Origin: an uncultured Pseudomonadota bacterium | Lineage (GTDB): Bacteria > Oederibacteriota > Muellerivitia > Muellerivitales > Muellerivitaceae | Length of the DNA stretch: 64,000 nt | Assembly (NCBI GenBank): GCA_963836235.1 | Contig: CAWIIP010000002.1 | Location: 832,001-896,000, forward strand | Reading direction: 5' to 3' | Shown: positions 4,072 to 17,964 of the stretch, one piece after another | Layout: each line of letters opens with the position of its first letter | Position numbering within the stretch: position 1 is the stretch's first letter | Made by a program: the position numbers and the translations under genes | Notes under the pieces: model-generated | Seen by the model: the letters and a program-made list of their open reading frames with translations, nothing else | Told to the model about the DNA's origin: nothing | Databases searched by the model: none

Positions 4072-6861
4072 TTACCGGATGACCACAACCCTGGCGACTT
4101 TGACATCGAGGGGCCGCTGAAGTTGAATCAAATAGACGCCGCTGGCCACGGGATCCTTGTGAGTATTGGTCCCGTCCCATTGGTACCAAATGTCGATGGC
4201 CCGGGTCAGTTCCTGATTATCGAGAATCTTGATGAGTTCGCCGGCGGTGTTGTAAACGCGCAGCGAATAGGGCCCGTTGTAGTCGGCGCTCCCCACATGG
4301 ATGGAAAGGGTGTCGGTCCCCTCCCTCATCAGGTTCAAGGAAAGGTAAAAGAGGTCGGTGCCCGGCGTAAAGGTGATGGTCGGCGTCGAGGTGGCCGTAA
4401 AAGTGGACGTGATGGTGGGAGTCAAGGTCGGGCTGGACGTGGGGGTGGTCGTCGCCGTGCGGGTCGGAGTAAGGGTGATCGTGGGAGTGAGGGTAATGGT
4501 GGAAGTAGGGGTGGAGCTCGATGTCGCGCTGGGCGTTTGGGTCGCGGTGGAACTGGCCGTGAGGGTCGGCGTCCCCGTCACGGTGGCGGTGGCTGTGGAC
4601 GTCGCGGTATTGGTGGGAGTGGAGGTGGGTGTCCCGGTGACGGCGCTTAAACTAAACTTGGTGATGAAGCCGTCCGTCCCTCCGGCGGTGGCGGTTTGGA
4701 AAGCGCCCGCCGTCGTTGGGAAATTGGTGGAAAAGCTGCCACCCGTCTCATAAATGTTCCCGCTCGTGTCCACGGCGATACCTTCGCCGTAATCAGTCCC
4801 ACTCCCACCCAAGTAGGTCGAGTAAACCAATGCCGATCCGGAGGGGTTCACCTCGGTCACAAAGGCGTCATCACCACCGGCGTTGGCCGACTGGTAGGCC
4901 CCTGCCGTGGTGGGAAAATTAGTGGAGCTGGTGTAACCCGAGACATAGGCATTTCCGCTGGAATCCACCGCGATGCCTTCCGCCGAATCGAAGCTGCTGC
5001 CGCCCAAATAAGTCGAATAGGATAACCCCGTCCCCGAGGGGTTCAGTTTGGTCAAGAAGGCGGTCGTCACGGCGCCGCTGGCGGTTTGGAAGGCGCCCGC
5101 GGTCGCCAAGGATGAGGTCGAAGTGGTGAACCCGGTGATATAGGCGCTTCCGGAGCCATCCACCGCGATGGCGAAACTATAAACACCCAAGTTCCCGCCC
5201 ACGTAAGTCGAGTAGACCAGTCCCGTTCCCGAGGGATTCAATTTGGTCACATAAGCGTCCGTCACCCCCGAACTGGCGGTTTGATAGGCCCCGGCCATCG
5301 TGGGGAAATTAGTGGAGGTGGTAAACCCTGTCACATAGGCGCTGCCTGCCGAATCCACGGCAATTCCGAAACCGTCCTCAATACCGCTTCCGCCGAGATA
5401 GGTGGAATAGACCAGCCCCGAACCCGCCGGGTTCAATTTGGTCACGAAGCTGTCATCCACCCCGCCCGCGGCAACCGTTTGAAAGGCTCCGGGGGTCGTC
5501 GGAAAATTGGTGGCGCTCGTAATGCCGGTCACATAAGCGTCTCCGGCCGCGTCCACCGCGATGCCCCTGGCGTAATCATTACTGCCGGTCCCGTCCAAAT
5601 AGGTGGAATAAAGCAGGGCGGTTCCCGTGGGATTCAATTTGCTGACGAAAGTCATCCATCCGCTGTCGATGGCCGTCGGTTGGTAGGCCCCCGGCGTGGT
5701 GGGGAAATTGCTTGAAAGCAAGGAACCGGTCACATAGGCGTCCCCGGCCGCGTCCACGGCGATCGACTCGCCGTAGTCATCCAGGTTCCCCCCCAGCAAG
5801 GTGGAATAAAGGATCGCGGTTCCCGTCGGGTTCAACTTGGCGACAAAAGCGTCATAGCCTCCGGCGTTGGTCGTTTGGATGGCCCCAGCGGTGGTTGGGA
5901 AATTGGTGGAATTAGTTTGGCCGGTCACGTAGATGTTCCCGCTCGAATCCACGGCGACGCTCGAGACCACATCCGTCCCGTTTCCTCCCAGGAGAGTGGA
6001 ATAGGAAACCGTCGGGTCGATGACCAGCGGGCGTGTCCTATCGTAAGGACCCAATTGGAAGCCAATTTTGGACTTTTCCAAAAAGACGTAGCGGCACTCG
6101 ACCTCGACCTTTCCCGAGGCCGTGGTTTGGTAAACTCTCGGGGCGTGAAATACCACATCGCTCTTGGCCCCTTGCCCGTCACTCGTCGAGTTACGGGATT
6201 CGCCCAATGGCTTTTCCCGGACTTTTAAAATCAAATTTCCAACTCCGTCCAAGGTCAGTTTTTTCGCGCCCACATAGTCCAATTGGAGAAGACCCGGGTC
6301 CGCTCCCGGATGGACGATGAAGTCATATTCTAGGTTTTCCTGGTTTCCGTAATAGACCATGTCGATCCCCGGATAAATATTTTCCGCTTTCACTTTCGCG
6401 TATAAGGGCACATGACTGTGCCAACGCGACGGATCATTGCCGATGAAGTAATTGGAAAAGCCGGGTGTTTCTTCTTCTCCCCGCCAGACCGCCTTGGGGT
6501 CGGCTCCCGGCAGGCGCAGCCGGACAACCTCCGATGGAACCCTTTTTGATTCCGGTTTTTTCGTTTTGTCCGGGCTCAGGCAAAAGACGGCTTCCCGGGG
6601 CGTGATGAAAAGGCTGTAAACCCTTCCCCGGGAGATAAACCTTACCTGGGGATCCACTTGGCCCTGGTTGGCCTCAAAGGCCAGGGGAAATTTGCCGTAA
6701 GCCTGGTTGATCCGGGCCGGTTGAATCGCGGAAGGGCGGGCGGTTTTAAGGGCGGTGACTTCGGGAATCTTTAAAAGAGGGTCGGCATCCTTGGCGCCCA
6801 GGGAGAAAAAAACACAAACAGCGGGGGCCAAGAAACTAAAAACATTTTTATGAAGCTTCAT
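4072..6861 (-). CDS. Secreted SBBP (beta-propeller) repeat protein with Thr/Pro linker and FlgD/T9SS-like C-terminal domain
   Basis: FEANQGQ N-domain; repeated YSTYLGG...IAVDxxGxAYVTGxTxSxNFPTT; TPT linker; VYNTAGELIK...WDG...VASGVY. Confidence 0.92.
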   Translation of the reverse strand: MKLHKNVFSFLAPAVCVFFSLGAKDADPLLKIPEVTALKTARPSAIQPARINQAYGKFPLAFEANQGQVDPQVRFISRGRVYSLFITPREAVFCLSPDKTKKPESKRVPSEVVRLRLPGADPKAVWRGEEETPGFSNYFIGNDPSRWHSHVPLYAKVKAENIYPGIDMVYYGNQENLEYDFIVHPGADPGLLQLDYVGAKKLTLDGVGNLILKVREKPLGESRNSTSDGQGAKSDVVFHAPRVYQTTASGKVEVECRYVFLEKSKIGFQLGPYDRTRPLVIDPTVSYSTLLGGNGTDVVSSVAVDSSGNIYVTGQTNSTNFPTTAGAIQTTNAGGYDAFVAKLNPTGTAILYSTLLGGNLDDYGESIAVDAAGDAYVTGSLLSSNFPTTPGAYQPTAIDSGWMTFVSKLNPTGTALLYSTYLDGTGSNDYARGIAVDAAGDAYVTGITSATNFPTTPGAFQTVAAGGVDDSFVTKLNPAGSGLVYSTYLGGSGIEDGFGIAVDSAGSAYVTGFTTSTNFPTMAGAYQTASSGVTDAYVTKLNPSGTGLVYSTYVGGNLGVYSFAIAVDGSGSAYITGFTTSTSSLATAGAFQTASGAVTTAFLTKLNPSGTGLSYSTYLGGSSFDSAEGIAVDSSGNAYVSGYTSSTNFPTTAGAYQSANAGGDDAFVTEVNPSGSALVYSTYLGGSGTDYGEGIAVDTSGNIYETGGSFSTNFPTTAGAFQTATAGGTDGFITKFSLSAVTGTPTSTPTNTATSTATATVTGTPTLTASSTATQTPSATSSSTPTSTITLTPTITLTPTRTATTTPTSSPTLTPTITSTFTATSTPTITFTPGTDLFYLSLNLMREGTDTLSIHVGSADYNGPYSLRVYNTAGELIKILDNQELTRAIDIWYQWDGTNTHKDPVASGVYLIQLQRPLDVKVARVVVIR

Positions 6862-11580: not shown

Positions 11581-11752
11581 TTATTTTTGTTCCCCGATAG
11601 GCTCAGAAAATTTCAGCTTGTCGAAATCCTTCCGAAGAACGTTGATTCCAGCGAAATATTCATCGTCTGATGGCAACGGCTTTCCCGTGGTGGTCATCGT
11701 CCGCGTCAAAAAGCGCGTAAACGGCGCTCGTATCCAACAAAACCTTATCCAT
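11581..11752 (-). pseudogene. Remnant of a PIN-domain (VapC-like) toxin
   Basis: MDKVLLDTSAVYALFDADDDHH (PIN N-terminus) stops after 30 aa; start overlaps the antitoxin stop. Confidence 0.7.
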
Positions 11753-11996
11753 GAACTTGTTCCGCCAAAACTTCGTCCAAGTCCACTTTGCCCATGTGGA
11801 ATTTTCCAATGAGGCTTTTGGTGTGTTTGCCGGTATAGACCCGGGGAGTGCTTTTTCCCGTGGAGCGAAGCGCCTCCCGGATCAACTCCCTAGCCTCCAA
11901 GCTGACGGACAGGCCGTTCTTTTTCGCCAAGCCCTTCAAGTTGTCGAATAAAGGACGTTCTAAAACGACGTGGATTCTTGGATTTTTCGTCGGCAT
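11745..11996 (-). CDS. Ribbon-helix-helix antitoxin (VapB-like)
   Basis: MPTKNPRIHVVLE...LAKKNGLSVSLEARELIREAL; GGAGG RBS; lies upstream of the PIN remnant. Confidence 0.75.
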   Translation of the reverse strand: MPTKNPRIHVVLERPLFDNLKGLAKKNGLSVSLEARELIREALRSTGKSTPRVYTGKHTKSLIGKFHMGKVDLDEVLAEQVHG

Positions 11997-12134
11997 GGTT
12001 CCTCCTATGGATTCAAAAAAGGTTAGCACAAGTGAGGAACCTATTCAATCGACTCTCGGGAGGGAAAATGGCTCGCAACCAAACTGTTAACTGGCCTGTT
12101 TGCCGAAGATTCATGATAGGCGGTTGGCCTGATC

Positions 12135-12357
12135 CCTTAGTTCTCGGGCCTATGCCCGCCAATGGGGCCTCGAGCAGGCAACTTTTGAGAGGGATATGAA
12201 CAACCCGGAGGTGGAGGAACGGATTGAAAGGGATTTCCAGGGCGCCGTGGCCAGCAAGGTCAGCACCACCCCGGCCTATTCCATCAACGGATTCCGCTAC
12301 GAGGGCTATTGGTCCTACGAGGCCCTCGCGAAAGACCTTCAAGCGGCGCGGGGATAG
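12135..12357 (+). pseudogene. 3' fragment of a DsbA-family gene (contains repeat B copy 1, 12204-12350)
   Basis: AYARQWGLEQATFERDM...IERDFQGA...VSTTPAYSINGFRYEG; no CxxC N-terminal half; in-frame stop upstream. Confidence 0.75.
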
Positions 12358-12833
12358 GGTTCAGAGGTGAGGCCGAAAGTGGTGGTTGGCAAAGGTGGAA
12401 TGCCTGCCTGTCCCACCGTTGAACACCCGGATAGGAGATGAAGTAAGCCTAGTGGATCACCGCAAGGCGAAGGGGATATTCCTCTCCGGCTTTCGGAGCT
12501 TCTTCGAGAAATCATAAAAGGGTTAGAGTCGGAGGATCAATCCATTCATTTTCAAAACCCAAATGTTACGTGCTGGCCGGAACCCCTCTTGCCTAACGCG
12601 AGGAACTCGAAAGCATGATGAATTTATTACAATTATTTTGGATTTTTTGACTTTTAACACACGGTGATCCCATTGGACTGTGGACCAAGGGATTGAATTT
12701 GATTTAAAAATGCCCTCTTTGGCATGAAGAGGATTGGCATAGGAAATGCTAAATCCTATATGACATGAAGTTGTATTAAAATTATTTTTCAAAGTTCATT
12801 TAGGCCGGCTATTTATTTTTGAAGGAAAACCAT

Positions 12834-14210
12834 ATGAAAAACCGCTTTATATTGGCTTTTGTTTTCGTTTTAACTGTCGGAACTTCGACCCTTTTCATGG
12901 CCAGCTGTAAAAGGGGAGTTTCCGTGCCGCCACTCGATCCCGGGTCAAGCCCCGCCTCTGCCCCACTCAGCCTGGTGTCTAGCGCGACGTCTACCCCCAT
13001 TCCAACTTTTTCACCGTCCTGCACGCCTACCTCCACTCCAAATTCGGCGGATACGGTTTTGATTCCTGATCCCAATCTTCTCGCCGCGGTGGTGCAGGTC
13101 TTGATTACCAACGGGGTGATTTCCAGTTCCCTCGTTCCCATCACGGCGGCCGATTTGTCCACGATCACCAGCCTGCAGGCTGAAGAAGCGGACATCAAAA
13201 ATGTGCAAGGGTTGCAATATTGCACGGGACTGACATCGCTGGATCTGAATTACAATTCCATAACGGACCCGACGCCCCTCGCGGGCTTGACAGGCCTGAC
13301 TTCCCTTTCCTTAGATGGAAATCAAATCGCCAGTCTCGCTCCCCTTTCCGGACTGACGAACTTGACCTACCTGGATCTAGGCCACAACAGTTTCACCAGC
13401 CTTGCGGGTTTGCCTAACGATCCGAACCTGTTGAACCTCAACCTGGACTGGGACAACCTCAGTGATATCTCCGCCCTTTCCGGCTACACAAGCCTTCAAT
13501 ATCTTTCTTTGTATAACAACCAAATCAGCAATCTCTCGCCCCTGTCCGGTCTTTCAAGCCTCAAAACGCTTGATCTGACGAGTAACGACATTACCGATCT
13601 CTCACCCCTATCCGGTCTGACGGGCCTTCTTGCCCTTTATCTGGACAGTAACTCCTTCACCAGCATTTCGGCTCTCTCCGGACTGACGAACCTTCAAACT
13701 CTTTACTTGGGATTCAATACGATCAGTGATTTCTCCGTTCTTTCCTCCTTTACGAATCTTGAAAATCTCGAATCGATGTATGACAACTTCACCAACGCTG
13801 ACCTTTTGTACTTGTCGAGTCTGACCAGTCTCAAATATCTTGACTTGGAAGGTAATCAAATAAGTGACTTCACGTCCCTCTCCGGCCTAACGGGAATGAC
13901 TTACTTGGATCTATCCTATAACCAGATTTCCAGCATCGCTCCCTTGGCCAACATGACTTTGCTGAAGTGGCTTTACTTGGAAAACAACCAGATCAGCGAT
14001 CTGACGGGCCTCAGTACCAGCATGACGGCTCTTTATTTCATCAATCTGGGCAATAACCTTTTGACCGATTTGAGTGTCTTGGTGAGCATCGATTCCGTGC
14101 TGGCGGCGAACAAGGGTGAGGTAGTCGTGGAAACGGGCAATCCCCTGGGTTCTACCGCCACCAGCACACAAATCCCTGAGCTTGCGGCCGCCGGAGTGGT
14201 TGTGGCTTGA
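12834..14210 (+). CDS. Internalin-like leucine-rich repeat lipoprotein
   Basis: Signal peptide with Cys (FMASC), S/T/P linker, IPDPNL cap, tandem 22-aa LRRs (LxxLxLxxNxIxDLxPL). Confidence 0.92.
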   Translation: MKNRFILAFVFVLTVGTSTLFMASCKRGVSVPPLDPGSSPASAPLSLVSSATSTPIPTFSPSCTPTSTPNSADTVLIPDPNLLAAVVQVLITNGVISSSLVPITAADLSTITSLQAEEADIKNVQGLQYCTGLTSLDLNYNSITDPTPLAGLTGLTSLSLDGNQIASLAPLSGLTNLTYLDLGHNSFTSLAGLPNDPNLLNLNLDWDNLSDISALSGYTSLQYLSLYNNQISNLSPLSGLSSLKTLDLTSNDITDLSPLSGLTGLLALYLDSNSFTSISALSGLTNLQTLYLGFNTISDFSVLSSFTNLENLESMYDNFTNADLLYLSSLTSLKYLDLEGNQISDFTSLSGLTGMTYLDLSYNQISSIAPLANMTLLKWLYLENNQISDLTGLSTSMTALYFINLGNNLLTDLSVLVSIDSVLAANKGEVVVETGNPLGSTATSTQIPELAAAGVVVA

Positions 14211-14270: not shown

Positions 14271-14501
14271 ATGAAAAAGAACACCACAATTTGGATGCTA
14301 GTGCTTTTCACGGGTTTTGGGAGCGTAGCAATGGCAAAGGCTCCTGAACCCGGTTCCCAGGCAGAGGCCCATCAGGAGCGTTTCTTACAAATGACATCCA
14401 AGGATGGGTTGTCCCGGCACCAAGGTCCCCATAAGAAGAAAATATCAGGCACGGTTAATAAATCTTTGAAACCGGGGTCAATCACCAATCTAAAGAAGTA
14501 A
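14271..14501 (+). CDS. Small secreted basic protein
   Basis: AAGGAG RBS, signal peptide ending AMA. Confidence 0.6.
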   Translation: MKKNTTIWMLVLFTGFGSVAMAKAPEPGSQAEAHQERFLQMTSKDGLSRHQGPHKKKISGTVNKSLKPGSITNLKK

Positions 14502-14539: not shown

Positions 14540-14702
14540 CCCGGATATGGAGGAACGGATTGAGAGGGATTTCCAGGGCGCCGTGGAAAGCAGGGTCTGC
14601 ACCATCCCGGCCTATTTCATCAACGGATTCCGCTACGAGGGCTATTGGTCCTACGAAGCCCTCGCGAAAGACCTACAAACGGCCCGAACCTCGACTGGAT
14701 AA
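14540..14702 (+). pseudogene. Second 3' DsbA fragment (repeat B copy 2, 14540-14686)
   Basis: About 13 mismatches in 147 bp versus 12204-12350; MEERIERDFQGAVESRVCTIPAYFINGFRYEGYWSYEAL. Confidence 0.85.
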
Positions 14703-14757: not shown

Positions 14758-14949
14758 CTATTTCTTGCCGTTATTACTCGAAGACTGATTTGAACTAGAA
14801 GTTGGTTTGGGATTCATCGCCTGCGGAGGGGCGGGACGTGGCGTTTGAGGCGGGTTATTAACTCCGCCCTTTTTAATCCACCCTTCTTGAAGTTTATTAC
14901 TACTTCCATTTTGGATAAACCCATCATTTCTTTGCTGATCTTTTGCCAT
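14758..14949 (-). CDS. Small Pro-rich peptide coupled to the DUF6338-like gene
   Basis: AAGGAG RBS inside the 3' end of the upstream gene; GWIKKGGVNNPPQTPRPAPPQ. Confidence 0.65.
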   Translation of the reverse strand: MAKDQQRNDGFIQNGSSNKLQEGWIKKGGVNNPPQTPRPAPPQAMNPKPTSSSNQSSSNNGKK

Positions 14950-15619
14950 TTTCATTCTCCTTTTTGTTTTTAGTTTCCTTCTCATCTAACCCCAATATTG
15001 GAAAGTCATAAATTAAATCTTTTCTGTCCCTTTCAACAAACAAACCGGAAGTTTCATATAATTTTTTGCCTGTAGAATTTTTGTAAACAATGGCGTCTCT
15101 TAAAAATATACCGTTTTCCTCAGTCGTATCGGGAAAAGCTTCTATCCAGCCTTCGAACATAAGATCGGACTTTAAATCTCTAATTACAACCCAAGGCGGC
15201 ATTTTAGAATTCATAATGTGATCAAAAACGCTTAAAGCCCCAAATTTGTTTGAAATTCTAGCCCATTGGGCAAATCTGTGAAACCAACTTCTTGTTATTA
15301 CGATTGAAAAAAACAAACCTAAAAATACAGAAATTATAGAAACGAAAAATATTTCACGAAAGTTAAGGTTGGTAGTTTTATCGGTAAGATTTTTTATCAG
15401 GTCGCAACTCAAAGTTATCACATTCAACCATGTTAAAATTTTTGTTGTTGCGAAATAAACCAAATATGAAATCAACCCTAACATAAATGAATAAACGCAC
15501 TCTTCATAAAATTCATATTTTTTATGAATAGTTAATTGCTTAATAATAAAAAAAGCTACCAACCCTGGAGTAAATATCAAAAGCAGCCTAAATACAAATT
15601 CAGTTAATTCCATTTCCAT
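14924..15619 (-). CDS. DUF6338-like membrane protein (low GC)
   Basis: LLLIFTPG N-terminus, three TM segments, SVFD...WVVIRD...FEGWIEAF...IFLRDA C-domain. Confidence 0.75.
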   Translation of the reverse strand: MEMELTEFVFRLLLIFTPGLVAFFIIKQLTIHKKYEFYEECVYSFMLGLISYLVYFATTKILTWLNVITLSCDLIKNLTDKTTNLNFREIFFVSIISVFLGLFFSIVITRSWFHRFAQWARISNKFGALSVFDHIMNSKMPPWVVIRDLKSDLMFEGWIEAFPDTTEENGIFLRDAIVYKNSTGKKLYETSGLFVERDRKDLIYDFPILGLDEKETKNKKENENGKRSAKK

Positions 15620-15669
15620 ATACAAATACCTCTAAAAAAAGAGAGGCTCTCGATTCGAGCCTAATTTTC

Positions 15670-16125
15670 CTACCAGCCTAAACGCATTTTTGAAATGCGT
15701 GATTGTGGTTGCGGCCGAACATAATTTTTGTCCGGGAAAAAATTTTTACATTCTGCTCCAGTTTTACCAACAAATAACAAATTCATTTTCAATCCATCAT
15801 CTTCAAAACATACCCGGCAATACAAACCCGGCTTGTACGTCATCCTCTCTTCTTTGAGTAAATAACAACCATACTGCTGATCGTTCTCGAAGTCGTTTCG
15901 AAGCTTTGATTTAGAATCTTCTTTTTTAAGCCTTTGCTCTAAGTTTTGATTTATTTCTTGGAGTTCTAACACCTCAGTTTTCAAGTGCAAAAGATTTTCC
16001 TTCACACCCAACAGCTCTTCTCGAATCCCGACAACGGTCAATTCCTCTTTAACTTTTAAAGCTCTATTTACAAGGTCCAGGGCAGTTTCAACAGATTTCC
16101 CAATTCCCATATTTTTAAAGGCCAT
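15670..16125 (-). CDS. Hypothetical coiled-coil protein with CxxC (low GC)
   Basis: AAGGAGG RBS; heptad-rich N-half; GLYCRVCFE...C. Confidence 0.75.
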   Translation of the reverse strand: MAFKNMGIGKSVETALDLVNRALKVKEELTVVGIREELLGVKENLLHLKTEVLELQEINQNLEQRLKKEDSKSKLRNDFENDQQYGCYLLKEERMTYKPGLYCRVCFEDDGLKMNLLFVGKTGAECKNFFPDKNYVRPQPQSRISKMRLGW

Positions 16126-16148
16126 TGGCTACCTCCTTTCGTCTATCC

Positions 16149-16212
16149 GCTTATACAACTCTGTCAATAATTGATCAAGTAAAAAGTATACGGCTGTATA
16201 CTTTTTACTTGA
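16149..16212 (-). promoter_or_regulatory. Putative promoter (TTGATC-N17-TATAAG) overlapped at -35 by a perfect 38-bp palindrome (16175-16212)
   Basis: TCAAGTAAAAAGTATAC-GGCT-GTATACTTTTTACTTGA read directly from the sequence. Confidence 0.6.
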
Positions 16213-16269
16213 AAAAAACCAGTCTCCAGAAGAGAGCTGAGCTTTATCGGCCTCGTTTTTCGTCGTCCC

Positions 16270-17964
16270 TCAGTTGCCCAAAACTTCATGGATCTTCTCG
16301 GCCAGTTCCTTGATGGTGAAGGGTTTCTGGATGAAATGGACCCCTTCCTCCAGGAGGTTGGACTCGGCGGTATAACCGGACATGTAAAGGCACTTTAATC
16401 CGGGAAAAACGGGCTGGACCTTCTTGGCCAATTCCATGCCGCTCATCTCGGGCATAATCACGTCGGTGATCAGCAAATGGGCCAGGGAATGATCTCGGAT
16501 ATGCAAAACGGCCTCCCTCGGCGAGGGGTAGGGCAAAACCTTGTAGCCCAGGTTCTTGAGGATTCGGGTGGTGATCTGGAGTATGGCCGGTTCGTCCTCG
16601 ACCAAAAGGATGTTGGTCTGGCCCCGGGCCAGGGGGATCGCGAGACTTTCCGACTGTACCACCGGAAGGGGGCCGTCATAACGGGGCAAGTAGATATCGA
16701 AGGTCGTTCCGATGCCCGGCTGGCTTTTCACCTGGATGAAACCCTTGTTCTGCTGGACGATCCCATAAACCGTGGAAAGCCCGAGGCCGGTCCCCTGCCC
16801 GGGGCCCTTGGTCGTGTAAAAGGGCTCGAACACCTTGGCCATAACTTCCTCCTTCATGCCGCTACCGTTATCGCTCACGGAGAGCCGCAGAAACTGTCCC
16901 GGGTAAAAACCGGGATGCTTGGCGCAATAGGCCTCGTCGAAAGCGGCGGCCCCCGTGGTGATGTCGATTCTCCCGGACCCTTGGATGGCGTCCCGGGCGT
17001 TGACGCAAAGGTTTGTCAGGATCTGGTCGATGTGGGTGGACCCCACCCGGACCCTTCCCGGCTCGCCCCGGAGGCGCAGGGACAATTGAATATTCTCGCC
17101 CAGGATGCGCTCGAGGAAGCGAATCAAGCTGTTGACCGCCTCGTTCAGGTCCATCACCTTCAGCGTCACCGTTTCCTTCCGGGCGAAGGTCAGCAGCTGG
17201 CGGGTCAGGTCGACGGAACGCCGGGACGCCTCCAGGATTTTTTGGAGGTCGTCGCGCAGGGGGTCGTCCGGTTTCATCTGGCTGCGCACCAGGTCGGTGT
17301 AGGAAATGATCACGGTGAGCATGTTGTTGAAGTCATGGGCCACGCCGCCGGCCAGGCGCCCGATCGATTCCATTTTTTGGGCCTGGAAAAGCTGGTCGCG
17401 CAGGCTTTCCCTCTCCTCCTCGCTCTTCAAGCGCTCCGCGTTTTCCCTTTCCAGTTCCCGGATCGTGCTCTCCAGCTGGGTCATCTTGGTCTCCAGCTTG
17501 CGGATCAGGGCCTCGTTGTATTGCTTCAGGTACACCGTTTCTTCCACCGGCGCCCCCTCCCCTTTTTCCCCCGGCACGGAAAGGCCCTTCACCCTTCCCA
17601 ATATCCCTTGGATGGTCTTGCGCAAGGACTCCGGCTCCTCCGGCTTGACGATGAAGGCCTCCGCCCCCAGGCTCAGGGCGAATTGCCGGTCCCTTTCGTC
17701 GGTATAGGTGGCCGTGTAAAAAACAAAGGCGACCGGCGCCAGGCGGGGGTTCTTTTTCCACTCCCGGCAGAGGGTGAACCCGTCCATGACAGGCATTAGG
17801 ACGTCGCTGATGACCATGTCGGGCGGGTTGAGGAGGGCTTGGGCCAGGGCCTCCGCGCCGTTGGGGGCCGTGGAGACCTCGTATCCGTCGGCCTGCAACA
17901 GGGCGCGTAAAAGATAGATGTTCTCCTCGTGGTCGTCCACGATCAGGATGCGGCTTGGGCTCAT
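16270..17964 (-). CDS. Hybrid sensor kinase REC-HisKA-HATPase-REC
   Basis: GGVAHDFNN H-box, NLCVNARDA, GTGLGL, receiver domains at both ends. Confidence 0.95.
   Translation of the reverse strand: MSPSRILIVDDHEENIYLLRALLQADGYEVSTAPNGAEALAQALLNPPDMVISDVLMPVMDGFTLCREWKKNPRLAPVAFVFYTATYTDERDRQFALSLGAEAFIVKPEEPESLRKTIQGILGRVKGLSVPGEKGEGAPVEETVYLKQYNEALIRKLETKMTQLESTIRELERENAERLKSEEERESLRDQLFQAQKMESIGRLAGGVAHDFNNMLTVIISYTDLVRSQMKPDDPLRDDLQKILEASRRSVDLTRQLLTFARKETVTLKVMDLNEAVNSLIRFLERILGENIQLSLRLRGEPGRVRVGSTHIDQILTNLCVNARDAIQGSGRIDITTGAAAFDEAYCAKHPGFYPGQFLRLSVSDNGSGMKEEVMAKVFEPFYTTKGPGQGTGLGLSTVYGIVQQNKGFIQVKSQPGIGTTFDIYLPRYDGPLPVVQSESLAIPLARGQTNILLVEDEPAILQITTRILKNLGYKVLPYPSPREAVLHIRDHSLAHLLITDVIMPEMSGMELAKKVQPVFPGLKCLYMSGYTAESNLLEEGVHFIQKPFTIKELAEKIHEVLGN

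Follow-up and report, generated by a model that had tools for sequence, protein, structure and literature searches.

A conserved pair of genes for a DUF6338-related membrane protein and a basic, proline-rich micro-protein, carried as accessory cargo by phages, plasmids and genomic islands

The protein family DUF6338 (Pfam PF19865) has no function, fold or partner recorded in the libraries that we searched, and in the full-text literature we found no described system of the kind reported here, with the name DUF6338 occurring in one paper only (PMC10433244, Anal Chem 2023). According to that paper, three small proteins of 36, 47 and 41 amino acids (aa) are encoded directly 3' of a DUF6338 gene in Pseudomonas stutzeri; they were detected by digest-free mass spectrometry with 85, 114 and 44 peptide-spectrum matches, were read intact from their own methionine with coverage of 100% and 98% for two of them, and are called proline-rich and 'not conserved beyond' P. 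stutzeri (PMC10433244). A further point of reference is the P2 gpA-gpQ locus, a validated defence hotspot where old and tin reside (Rousset et al. 2022, PMC9122126). Here we describe a locus in a stretch of 64,000 nucleotides (nt), positions 832,001 to 896,000 of contig CAWIIP010000002.1 (assembly GCA_963836235.1), which we call the window and to which all window coordinates refer. An AT-rich islet in the window carries three open reading frames (ORFs) on the minus strand, namely gene 1 (15670-16125), gene 2 (14924-15619) and the gene of a micro-protein (14758-14949), hereafter the peptide. That gene 2 and the peptide gene are a real, conserved and translated pair is, in our judgement, highly probable. 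The features of the pair are as follows.

14924 to 15619, minus strand: gene 2, a 231-aa membrane protein related to DUF6338 (Pfam, HMMER and AlphaFold2, AF2)
15293 to 15613, minus strand: three predicted membrane helices of gene 2, residues 3-29, 37-64 and 87-109 (AF2 model)
14987 to 15250, minus strand: predicted cytoplasmic Sm/LSm-fold domain of gene 2, residues 124-211, acidic with an isoelectric point (pI) of 5.3 (Foldseek, VIA-align)
14758 to 14949, minus strand: 63-aa basic, proline-rich micro-protein with its own Shine-Dalgarno (SD) element and ATG

The ATG of the peptide, at 14949, stands 7 nt after an AAGGAG element (14957-14962), lies 26 nt inside the end of gene 2 and is in the +1 frame relative to it, with the peptide frame open back to 14985. 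An earlier reading of this DNA (the original prediction) had placed the ribosome-binding site of the peptide inside the 3' end of the membrane gene, and the position of the AAGGAG, within gene 2, bears it out. Its description of a peptide of about 63 aa with the core GWIKKGGVNNPPQTPRPAPPQ and a GFIQNG/GWIKKG echo was likewise accurate, and the window peptide fits the pattern KGGxNxxPxxPRPxPP that it proposed. It had also staked itself on conservation of the peptide beside homologues, which was found: a search from the membrane protein alone revealed a short basic proline-rich ORF downstream in 17 of 18 loci. These comprise four metagenome loci (L002, L003, L004 and L006; L005 is cut off), L127, seven plasmids, one phage, three alphaproteobacterial genomes (L179-L181) and E. 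coli ET776.

The reverse search started from the peptide, using degenerate DNA that encodes E-G-x-x-K-[KR]-G-G-x-N-x-x-P. Of the 119 genome stretches among the matches listed, 21 have a gene of the family immediately upstream and on the same strand; 18 of these come from the 80 stretches whose flanks are complete and three from the 39 whose flanks are short. On viral contigs a family gene stood immediately upstream in one of 35 matches. The other matches represent chance background and show the pattern by itself to be unspecific; only the conjunction with a family gene is informative. The hosts named among the matches listed belong to Bacillota, Planctomycetota, Acidobacteriota, Nitrospirales, Alphaproteobacteria, Paceibacterota and KSB1. 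Beyond what the search pattern itself imposes, the peptides share a start of M-[AS]-[DN], a hydrophobic residue at the second or third place behind EG and a downstream P-[ST]-[TS]-P-R-P-x-x-P-P. The echo is conserved as well, with extra [D/E]-G-hydrophobic copies in L127, Acidiphilium and Methylobacterium and up to three such copies in Pantoea, the Yersinia phage, Oceanimonas and E. coli. The 28 peptides collected have a median length of 48 aa, a median pI of 10.3 and 21.5% proline, with runs of at least three prolines in 12 of them.

None of the 28 peptides matched Pfam or NCBIfam at E ≤ 0.01; for the window peptide, a word-indexed search returned its own sequence only and the Atlas nothing usable (best score 0.76). 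Further searches without a match were the single-protein scans of metagenome and viral contigs and a first alignment profile run against genome contigs and viral contigs. In the RefSeq and PLSDB gene tables the partner ORF is unannotated in E. coli ET776 (L182 5629-5901) and in the Vibrio, Agrobacterium and Methylobacterium plasmids (L138, L142, L143); the entries for B. cereus, Acidiphilium, Pantoea and the Yersinia phage list it as a hypothetical protein. Two loci carry more than one copy. At L008 (1931-2279, minus strand) two tandem paralogous peptide genes follow one membrane gene, as do three in P. stutzeri, and at L181 (about 2101-2585) the peptide and part of the membrane gene are apparently duplicated in tandem.

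Several features mark the peptide as a gene of its own. An SD-like element precedes an in-frame start by 4-14 nt in 27 of the 28 peptide ORFs, the start codons being 27 ATG and one TTG. With respect to gene 2, the layouts span everything between an overlap of 128 nt and a gap of 47 nt, an 8-nt overlap being common to seven loci. Each of the three possible relative reading frames is used by the peptide ORFs, in L003 and L046 frame 0 after a stop codon. Across a 22-codon core compared in 12 peptides (66 pairs), 578 codon differences were synonymous only and 508 changed the amino acid; in the Bacillaceae pair L018/L046 the corresponding numbers were 10 and 2. The peptide evolves as coding sequence, with mostly synonymous divergence between close relatives.

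Membrane protein and peptide are also inherited together. Their pairwise identities correlate (Mantel r 0.62, 20 pairs) and none of 2000 permutations reached as high a value, a correlation that shows inheritance as a unit, not contact, and to which relatedness contributes. Furthermore, the two occur as one chain. In P0137 the motif forms an in-frame C-terminal tail of the membrane protein that ends ...LKEGNIKGGRKTGP...PPP, and among the 26 representatives of more than 240 aa roughly half have, as judged by eye, a low-complexity tail containing EG. A conserved, co-inherited and separately translated two-gene pair that travels as accessory cargo of mobile elements is well supported.

Gene 2 matches the PF19865 profile with 23.0 bits (E 6.9e-5, profile positions 11-176 of 205), which is below the curated gathering cut-off of 26.5 bits. 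An exhaustive HMMER search yielded 929 representatives (clustered at 50% identity) at E ≤ 1e-3, 58 of them at E ≤ 1e-30. The PF19865 profile matches 66 of 102 aligned gene 2 homologues at E ≤ 1e-3, the best with 1.8e-14, and the plasmid homologues found by tblastn (23-27% identity) are named 'DUF6338 family protein' by RefSeq. On these sequence comparisons we read gene 2 as a divergent branch of the DUF6338 family, linked to it by transitive homology. The original call of a DUF6338-like protein, made from motif recall, thus holds in the profile check as far as family relationship is concerned (E 6.9e-5), whereas full membership at the curated cut-off does not. A TTG two codons 5' of the ATG of gene 2 is open as well.

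The AF2 model of gene 2 is of high confidence (predicted local distance difference test, pLDDT, 92.7; predicted template-modelling score 0.80). It contains the three membrane helices, two short helices, five strands (143-205) and a C-terminal helix, in agreement with the protein of three transmembrane helices and a soluble beta-rich domain foreseen in the original prediction. The C-terminal helix is encoded by the region of overlap with the peptide gene, and relatives such as P0003 and the L003 protein are devoid of it. The positive-inside rule, applied by eye, suggests an N-out/C-in topology, which would place the soluble domain in the cytoplasm. In that domain, an N-terminal helix (131-136) is predicted to precede a five-stranded bent sheet (143-205). 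Structure comparison aligned it with Sm, LSm and archaeal SmAP chains at Z 8-8.9 (root-mean-square deviation 2.1-2.5 A over 68-76 residues) and with Hfq chains at Z 6.3-7.1; TM-scores by target length were 0.6-0.76 and Foldseek E-values were 6e-4 and weaker. A best Z of 7-8 is common with this tool, and the call of an Sm fold is credible because the list of matches is uniform in family and the targets are covered nearly completely. The soluble domain is therefore confidently predicted to have the Sm/LSm/Hfq fold. By eye, gene 2 has the Sm1-like glycine and aspartate (G157, D164) and no evident Sm2 'RG' motif, and its profile matched no solved chain among the sequences of the Protein Data Bank (PDB). 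The idea of an MscS-like channel, raised by the combination of three helices and a beta domain, found no MscS among the structural matches listed, which were Sm, LSm and Hfq. In addition, an uncharacterised phage protein in BFVD (A0A8S5PTE5) matches gene 2 over its full length (E 6e-5).

The module of gene 2 and peptide is rare and patchy, and is found on phages, plasmids, cassette arrays and islands. Within the phylum of the window, the gene 2 family was detected in two of 99 genomes (G000 and G044), with a marginal third (E 6.4e-4), L127 being the only clear match there besides that of the window; a genome of the same genus, 80% complete, gave no match to the family. Among sampled genomes the family occurs in 2 of 401 Bacilli and 4 of 401 Alphaproteobacteria, and blastn recovered the enterobacterial type in 2 of 5426 complete E. 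coli genomes. In the P2-like Yersinia phage vB_YenM_06.16-2 the pair lies between gpA/tum and the portal gene gpQ. On a Vibrio plasmid it is inserted between DUF3265 ORFs and among toxin-antitoxin cassettes (CcdAB, HigB, Phd/YoeB), a site that looks like an integron array. A 4.2-kb Oceanimonas plasmid consists of a relaxase gene, a RelE/ParE pair and the module, with nothing else. Plasmids of Acidiphilium, Agrobacterium and Methylobacterium are further carriers; on a Pantoea plasmid the module stands beside ADP-ribosyltransferase and RES genes, and on the B. cereus plasmid pAH187_45 (L136) beside caspase-like and nuclease genes. In E. coli ET776 it adjoins Gabija-like genes (ATP-dependent endonuclease, UvrD helicase) and the gene of a WYL protein. 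Neighbours in the metagenome loci include Avs2 (E 0) in L004, PDC-S60 (1e-64) in L003, a type IV restriction enzyme in L005, and PglX/type IIG together with PDC-S31 in L006.

Near-identical modules are present in L002, L003 and L004 in three different neighbourhoods. Related repeats of about 100-200 nt were observed to flank the module on both sides (L002 3918-4121 and 5590-5715; L003 3971-4156; L004 around 5738-5952), which hints that it moves as a repeat-bounded cassette. A separate observation concerns the Bacillaceae loci L018, L046 and L136, where the module has as neighbours a caspase-like gene (Peptidase_C14) and a gene of a TIR-like or nuclease type; these three and L135 may share ancestry and hence are not independent.

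Sm, LSm and Hfq proteins assemble into hexameric or heptameric rings. On the strength of the modelled fold, the Sm domains of gene 2 could form such a ring and would then bundle 18-21 helices in the membrane, because six or seven subunits would contribute three helices each. The basic, presumably disordered peptide would bind the acidic Sm domain by way of a frequently repeated motif, [D/E]-G-hydrophobic-x-K-K-G-G-x-N. Peptides with a median pI of 10.3 face an Sm domain with a pI of 5.3, and from the predicted fold and this charge contrast we consider such binding somewhat probable. The bound peptide would set the activity of the membrane part and, being proline-rich and hard to translate, might serve as a labile regulator, so that the module would act as phage-conflict cargo (defence, exclusion or abortive infection) with the membrane protein as effector. 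A role in phage conflict or defence, to which the mobile-element context points, is the one that we favour, as a tentative suggestion that leans to the doubtful side. The anti-phage, toxin-antitoxin or peptide-signalling role put forward in the original prediction may likewise be read from this context. The statement as a whole, namely a two-gene Sm-like/peptide module that is peptide-regulated and carried as phage-conflict cargo, falls just short of being probable.

A number of observations weigh against this proposal. In the AF2 monomer of the fused protein P0137 the tail is undocked (pLDDT 55-67), a result that says little either way. The P. stutzeri peptides are, by the counts in PMC10433244, abundant in ordinary culture and not obviously scarce or labile. 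L135, a distant homologue from Bacilli, lacks the peptide and has a caspase-like gene directly after the membrane gene. Neither gene 2 nor the peptide matched a family in PADLOC-DB v2 at E ≤ 1, and the neighbours in the window are two-component signalling genes and a leucine-rich repeat (LRR) protein, with no defence genes. Moreover, a crude neighbour test gave no clear sign of the enrichment in defence islands that the original prediction had proposed to look for. Counting any PADLOC hit within 2 kb, with module and control loci drawn from the same pattern scan (controls being the first 38 of 43 eligible loci), we found a neighbour at E ≤ 1e-5 in 7 of 18 module loci and in 13 of 38 controls; at E ≤ 1e-20 the numbers were 6 of 18 and 6 of 38, a trend only. 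Many of the hits at control loci are generic domains (kinases, helicases, cysteine desulfurase). The metagenome loci were PADLOC-positive in five of five cases, but their flanks are longer and three close relatives are among them. Some single loci, such as those of the Yersinia phage and E. coli, are suggestive in their surroundings.

Among the alternatives, the pair could be a toxin-antitoxin or plasmid-addiction unit, in which the membrane protein is the toxin and the peptide the antitoxin, or the reverse, and which stabilises mobile elements and is not directed against phages. The module is found on seven plasmids, among them the 4.2-kb plasmid otherwise holding only a relaxase gene and a RelE/ParE pair; on the Vibrio plasmid it sits amid CcdAB, HigB and Phd/YoeB cassettes, and the tight overlap of its two genes is typical of toxin-antitoxin pairs. 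However, the small partner is downstream and dependent on translation of the large gene, which is the less common order for an antitoxin, and single-chain fusions are unusual for such pairs. We consider an addiction unit unlikely; it shades into the abortive-infection readings and cannot be separated cleanly from the phage-conflict explanation.

A purely physiological reading would take gene 2 for an accessory membrane protein that has lost its disordered C-terminal tail to a separate subunit; its task would be, for instance, to anchor RNA or protein at the membrane or to respond to envelope stress, with no role in conflict. It would accommodate the tail fused in many representatives, the binding of RNA and protein by Sm, LSm and Hfq proteins, the lack of clear defence enrichment in the neighbour test and the signalling genes around the islet, and it suits the good expression of the P. 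stutzeri operon in plain culture as given in PMC10433244. Against it stand the very patchy spread (2 of 401, 4 of 401, none in the 80%-complete genome of the same genus), the phage hotspot, plasmids and cassette arrays among its carriers, and the near-identical modules in three neighbourhoods (L002, L003, L004). On balance a physiological role appears improbable.

The peptide-regulated membrane module can also be given a bolder form. The Sm-like membrane ring would then represent a novel type of abortive-infection effector, either under the control of a polyproline micro-protein whose supply follows the state of host translation, or sensing phage nucleic acid directly. Once the peptide is lost or displaced, the 18-21 helices of the ring might open or disrupt the membrane; in a still bolder variant, the released peptide itself might block ribosomes in the manner of proline-rich antimicrobial peptides. 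We regard this class of effector as quite unlikely.

Less likely again, indeed very improbable, is that the peptide is the active agent, as a proline-rich translation inhibitor or an exported signal, with the membrane protein as its exporter, immunity factor or sequestering site. The PRP/PP-rich basic core of the peptide presumably resembles that of proline-rich antimicrobial peptides, and two or three tandem copies exist at L008 and in P. stutzeri. An antimicrobial role was indeed raised by the authors of PMC10433244; by their account, however, the P. stutzeri peptides came from non-membrane fractions in high counts and with no evident harm. Nor does the peptide have a signal peptide, its best conserved part is the EG-x-x-KKGG-x-N motif and not the proline run, and the fused tails speak for an action at the membrane protein itself. 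Finally, the notion that the small ORF is no separate gene, being produced from gene 2 by a programmed frameshift or left over from a frameshift mutation, could draw on the +1 frame with overlap in most loci and on the fused forms, but is largely refuted, and in our estimate barely conceivable, given that every relative frame is used (in L003 and L046 even frame 0, after a stop codon), an SD and start in 27 of 28 ORFs, and P. stutzeri peptides that PMC10433244 reports intact from their own methionine with 98-100% coverage.

The remainder of the islet contains the following features.

15670 to 16125, minus strand: gene 1, 151 aa, with a coiled-coil-like N-terminal half and a C..CxxC..C arrangement (from the ORF list)
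15644 to 15662, minus strand: terminator-like hairpin with a T-run between genes 1 and 2 (sequence scan)
16150 to 16178, minus strand: weak candidate promoter, TTGATC-17 nt-TATAAG, read from the sequence and unlisted by the promoter scan
16175 to 16212, no strand assigned: perfect inverted repeat of 17 bp with a 4-nt loop, 100% complementary

Gene 1 found only itself in a word index of 5.8 billion proteins, no match by tblastn in phage records and only unnamed clusters in the Atlas. It matches phrog_1244 (function not known) with E 7.9e-8, its hit to HEC-07 in PADLOC-DB v2 (E 0.0047, 13.5 bits) is not significant, and phmmer at E ≤ 1 found no relative among 5386 ORFs from 182 other loci, all module-bearing loci included. 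The genes upstream of gene 2 homologues vary from locus to locus. As judged from these comparisons, gene 1 is an unrelated orphan neighbour outside the conserved module, for which it might supply the transcription start. The three-gene cassette of the original prediction must accordingly be reduced, gene 1 being no conserved partner and a terminator-like hairpin lying between genes 1 and 2. The fold energy of this hairpin is -16.2 kcal/mol (z -1.5, not significant), and it may be an attenuator.

The islet itself is as AT-rich as had been claimed, with a GC content of 0.27-0.41 across about 14,800-16,300, against 0.55-0.65 in the right flank and about 0.45-0.52 in the left. A strong ribosome-binding site was also correctly noted: AGGAGG stands 6 nt 5' of the ATG of gene 1, and gene 2 has AGAGG 9 nt 5' of its ATG. 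The claimed promoter fared less well. TTGACA (16162-16167) and TATAAG (16150-16155) do not constitute a spaced promoter because they are just 6 nt apart, and the promoter scan, whose total of 4 sites compares with a shuffle mean of 4.5 ± 2.1, reported none in front of gene 1; the weaker TTGATC-17 nt-TATAAG is a possible substitute. The inverted repeat at 16175-16212 begins 58 nt beyond the stop of the upstream histidine-kinase gene, overlaps the candidate -35 element and is present in the minimum-energy fold of the region; it may be the terminator of the upstream kinase operon, or an operator. No tRNA gene was found in the window and no integrase gene among the scanned neighbours of the islet. 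For the flanking kinase-gene DNA, no syntenic match that would mark the boundaries of the insertion was found in three related genomes. No RNA sequencing run contains the stretch; only three soil-metagenome DNA runs were listed for it, with small word shares.

Further observations were made to the left of the peptide gene. A direct repeat of 147 nt (91% identity) occurs at 12204-12350 and 14540-14686, the second copy abutting the peptide gene. By eye, both copies encode the C-terminal end of a DsbA/thioredoxin-type protein, with no Pfam match at 1e-3, and together they bracket the gene of the LRR protein (12819-14210) and a small ORF that looks secreted (14271-14501). The region looks like a patchwork of insertions. 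At 11745-12029 (minus strand) lies a 94-aa ORF whose N-terminus resembles a ribbon-helix-helix antitoxin by eye and which had no Pfam match at E ≤ 1e-3.

Our data give the DUF6338 relatives, with 929 representatives, a predicted fold (membrane-anchored and Sm-like) and a near-universal partner. The partner is a micro-protein that has been overlooked, being uncalled in several annotated records and outside Pfam and NCBIfam families, and its wider occurrence corrects the published claim of peptides restricted to a single species (PMC10433244). Since a validated phage defence hotspot, small plasmids, cassette arrays and E. coli all provide examples of the pair, a role in defence, exclusion or addiction is open to direct testing in laboratory strains. 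Should an Sm ring gated by a peptide prove true, it would link an ancient RNA-binding fold to the function of a membrane effector.

Compared with known systems, the window protein resembles PF19865 in that it and its homologues match the profile, and differs in scoring 23.0 bits, under the 26.5 of the cut-off. With Sm, LSm and Hfq proteins, the predicted domain of gene 2 shares the N-terminal helix and five bent strands, whereas it is tethered to three membrane helices and has no match to solved chains at the sequence level. Like membrane effectors of abortive infection and type II toxin-antitoxin systems, the module is a small coupled two-gene unit with one membrane component on mobile elements; unlike them, it comes without a sensor, enzyme or nucleotide-signalling partner and without a PADLOC match. 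As regards the cargo of the P2 gpA-gpQ hotspot (old, tin), the pair occupies exactly that locus in vB_YenM_06.16-2 and is not among the systems that we found named in PMC9122126, whose supplementary tables of 169 systems may include it. A close counterpart is 'operon 9' of P. stutzeri as presented in PMC10433244, which has the same order of a DUF6338 gene followed by short basic proline-rich ORFs and whose peptides share, by eye, the GG-V-N...RP..PP core. That operon carries three tandem peptide copies whereas the window has one, and its peptides were reported as confined to the species, whereas those described here occur in many phyla, on plasmids and in phages.

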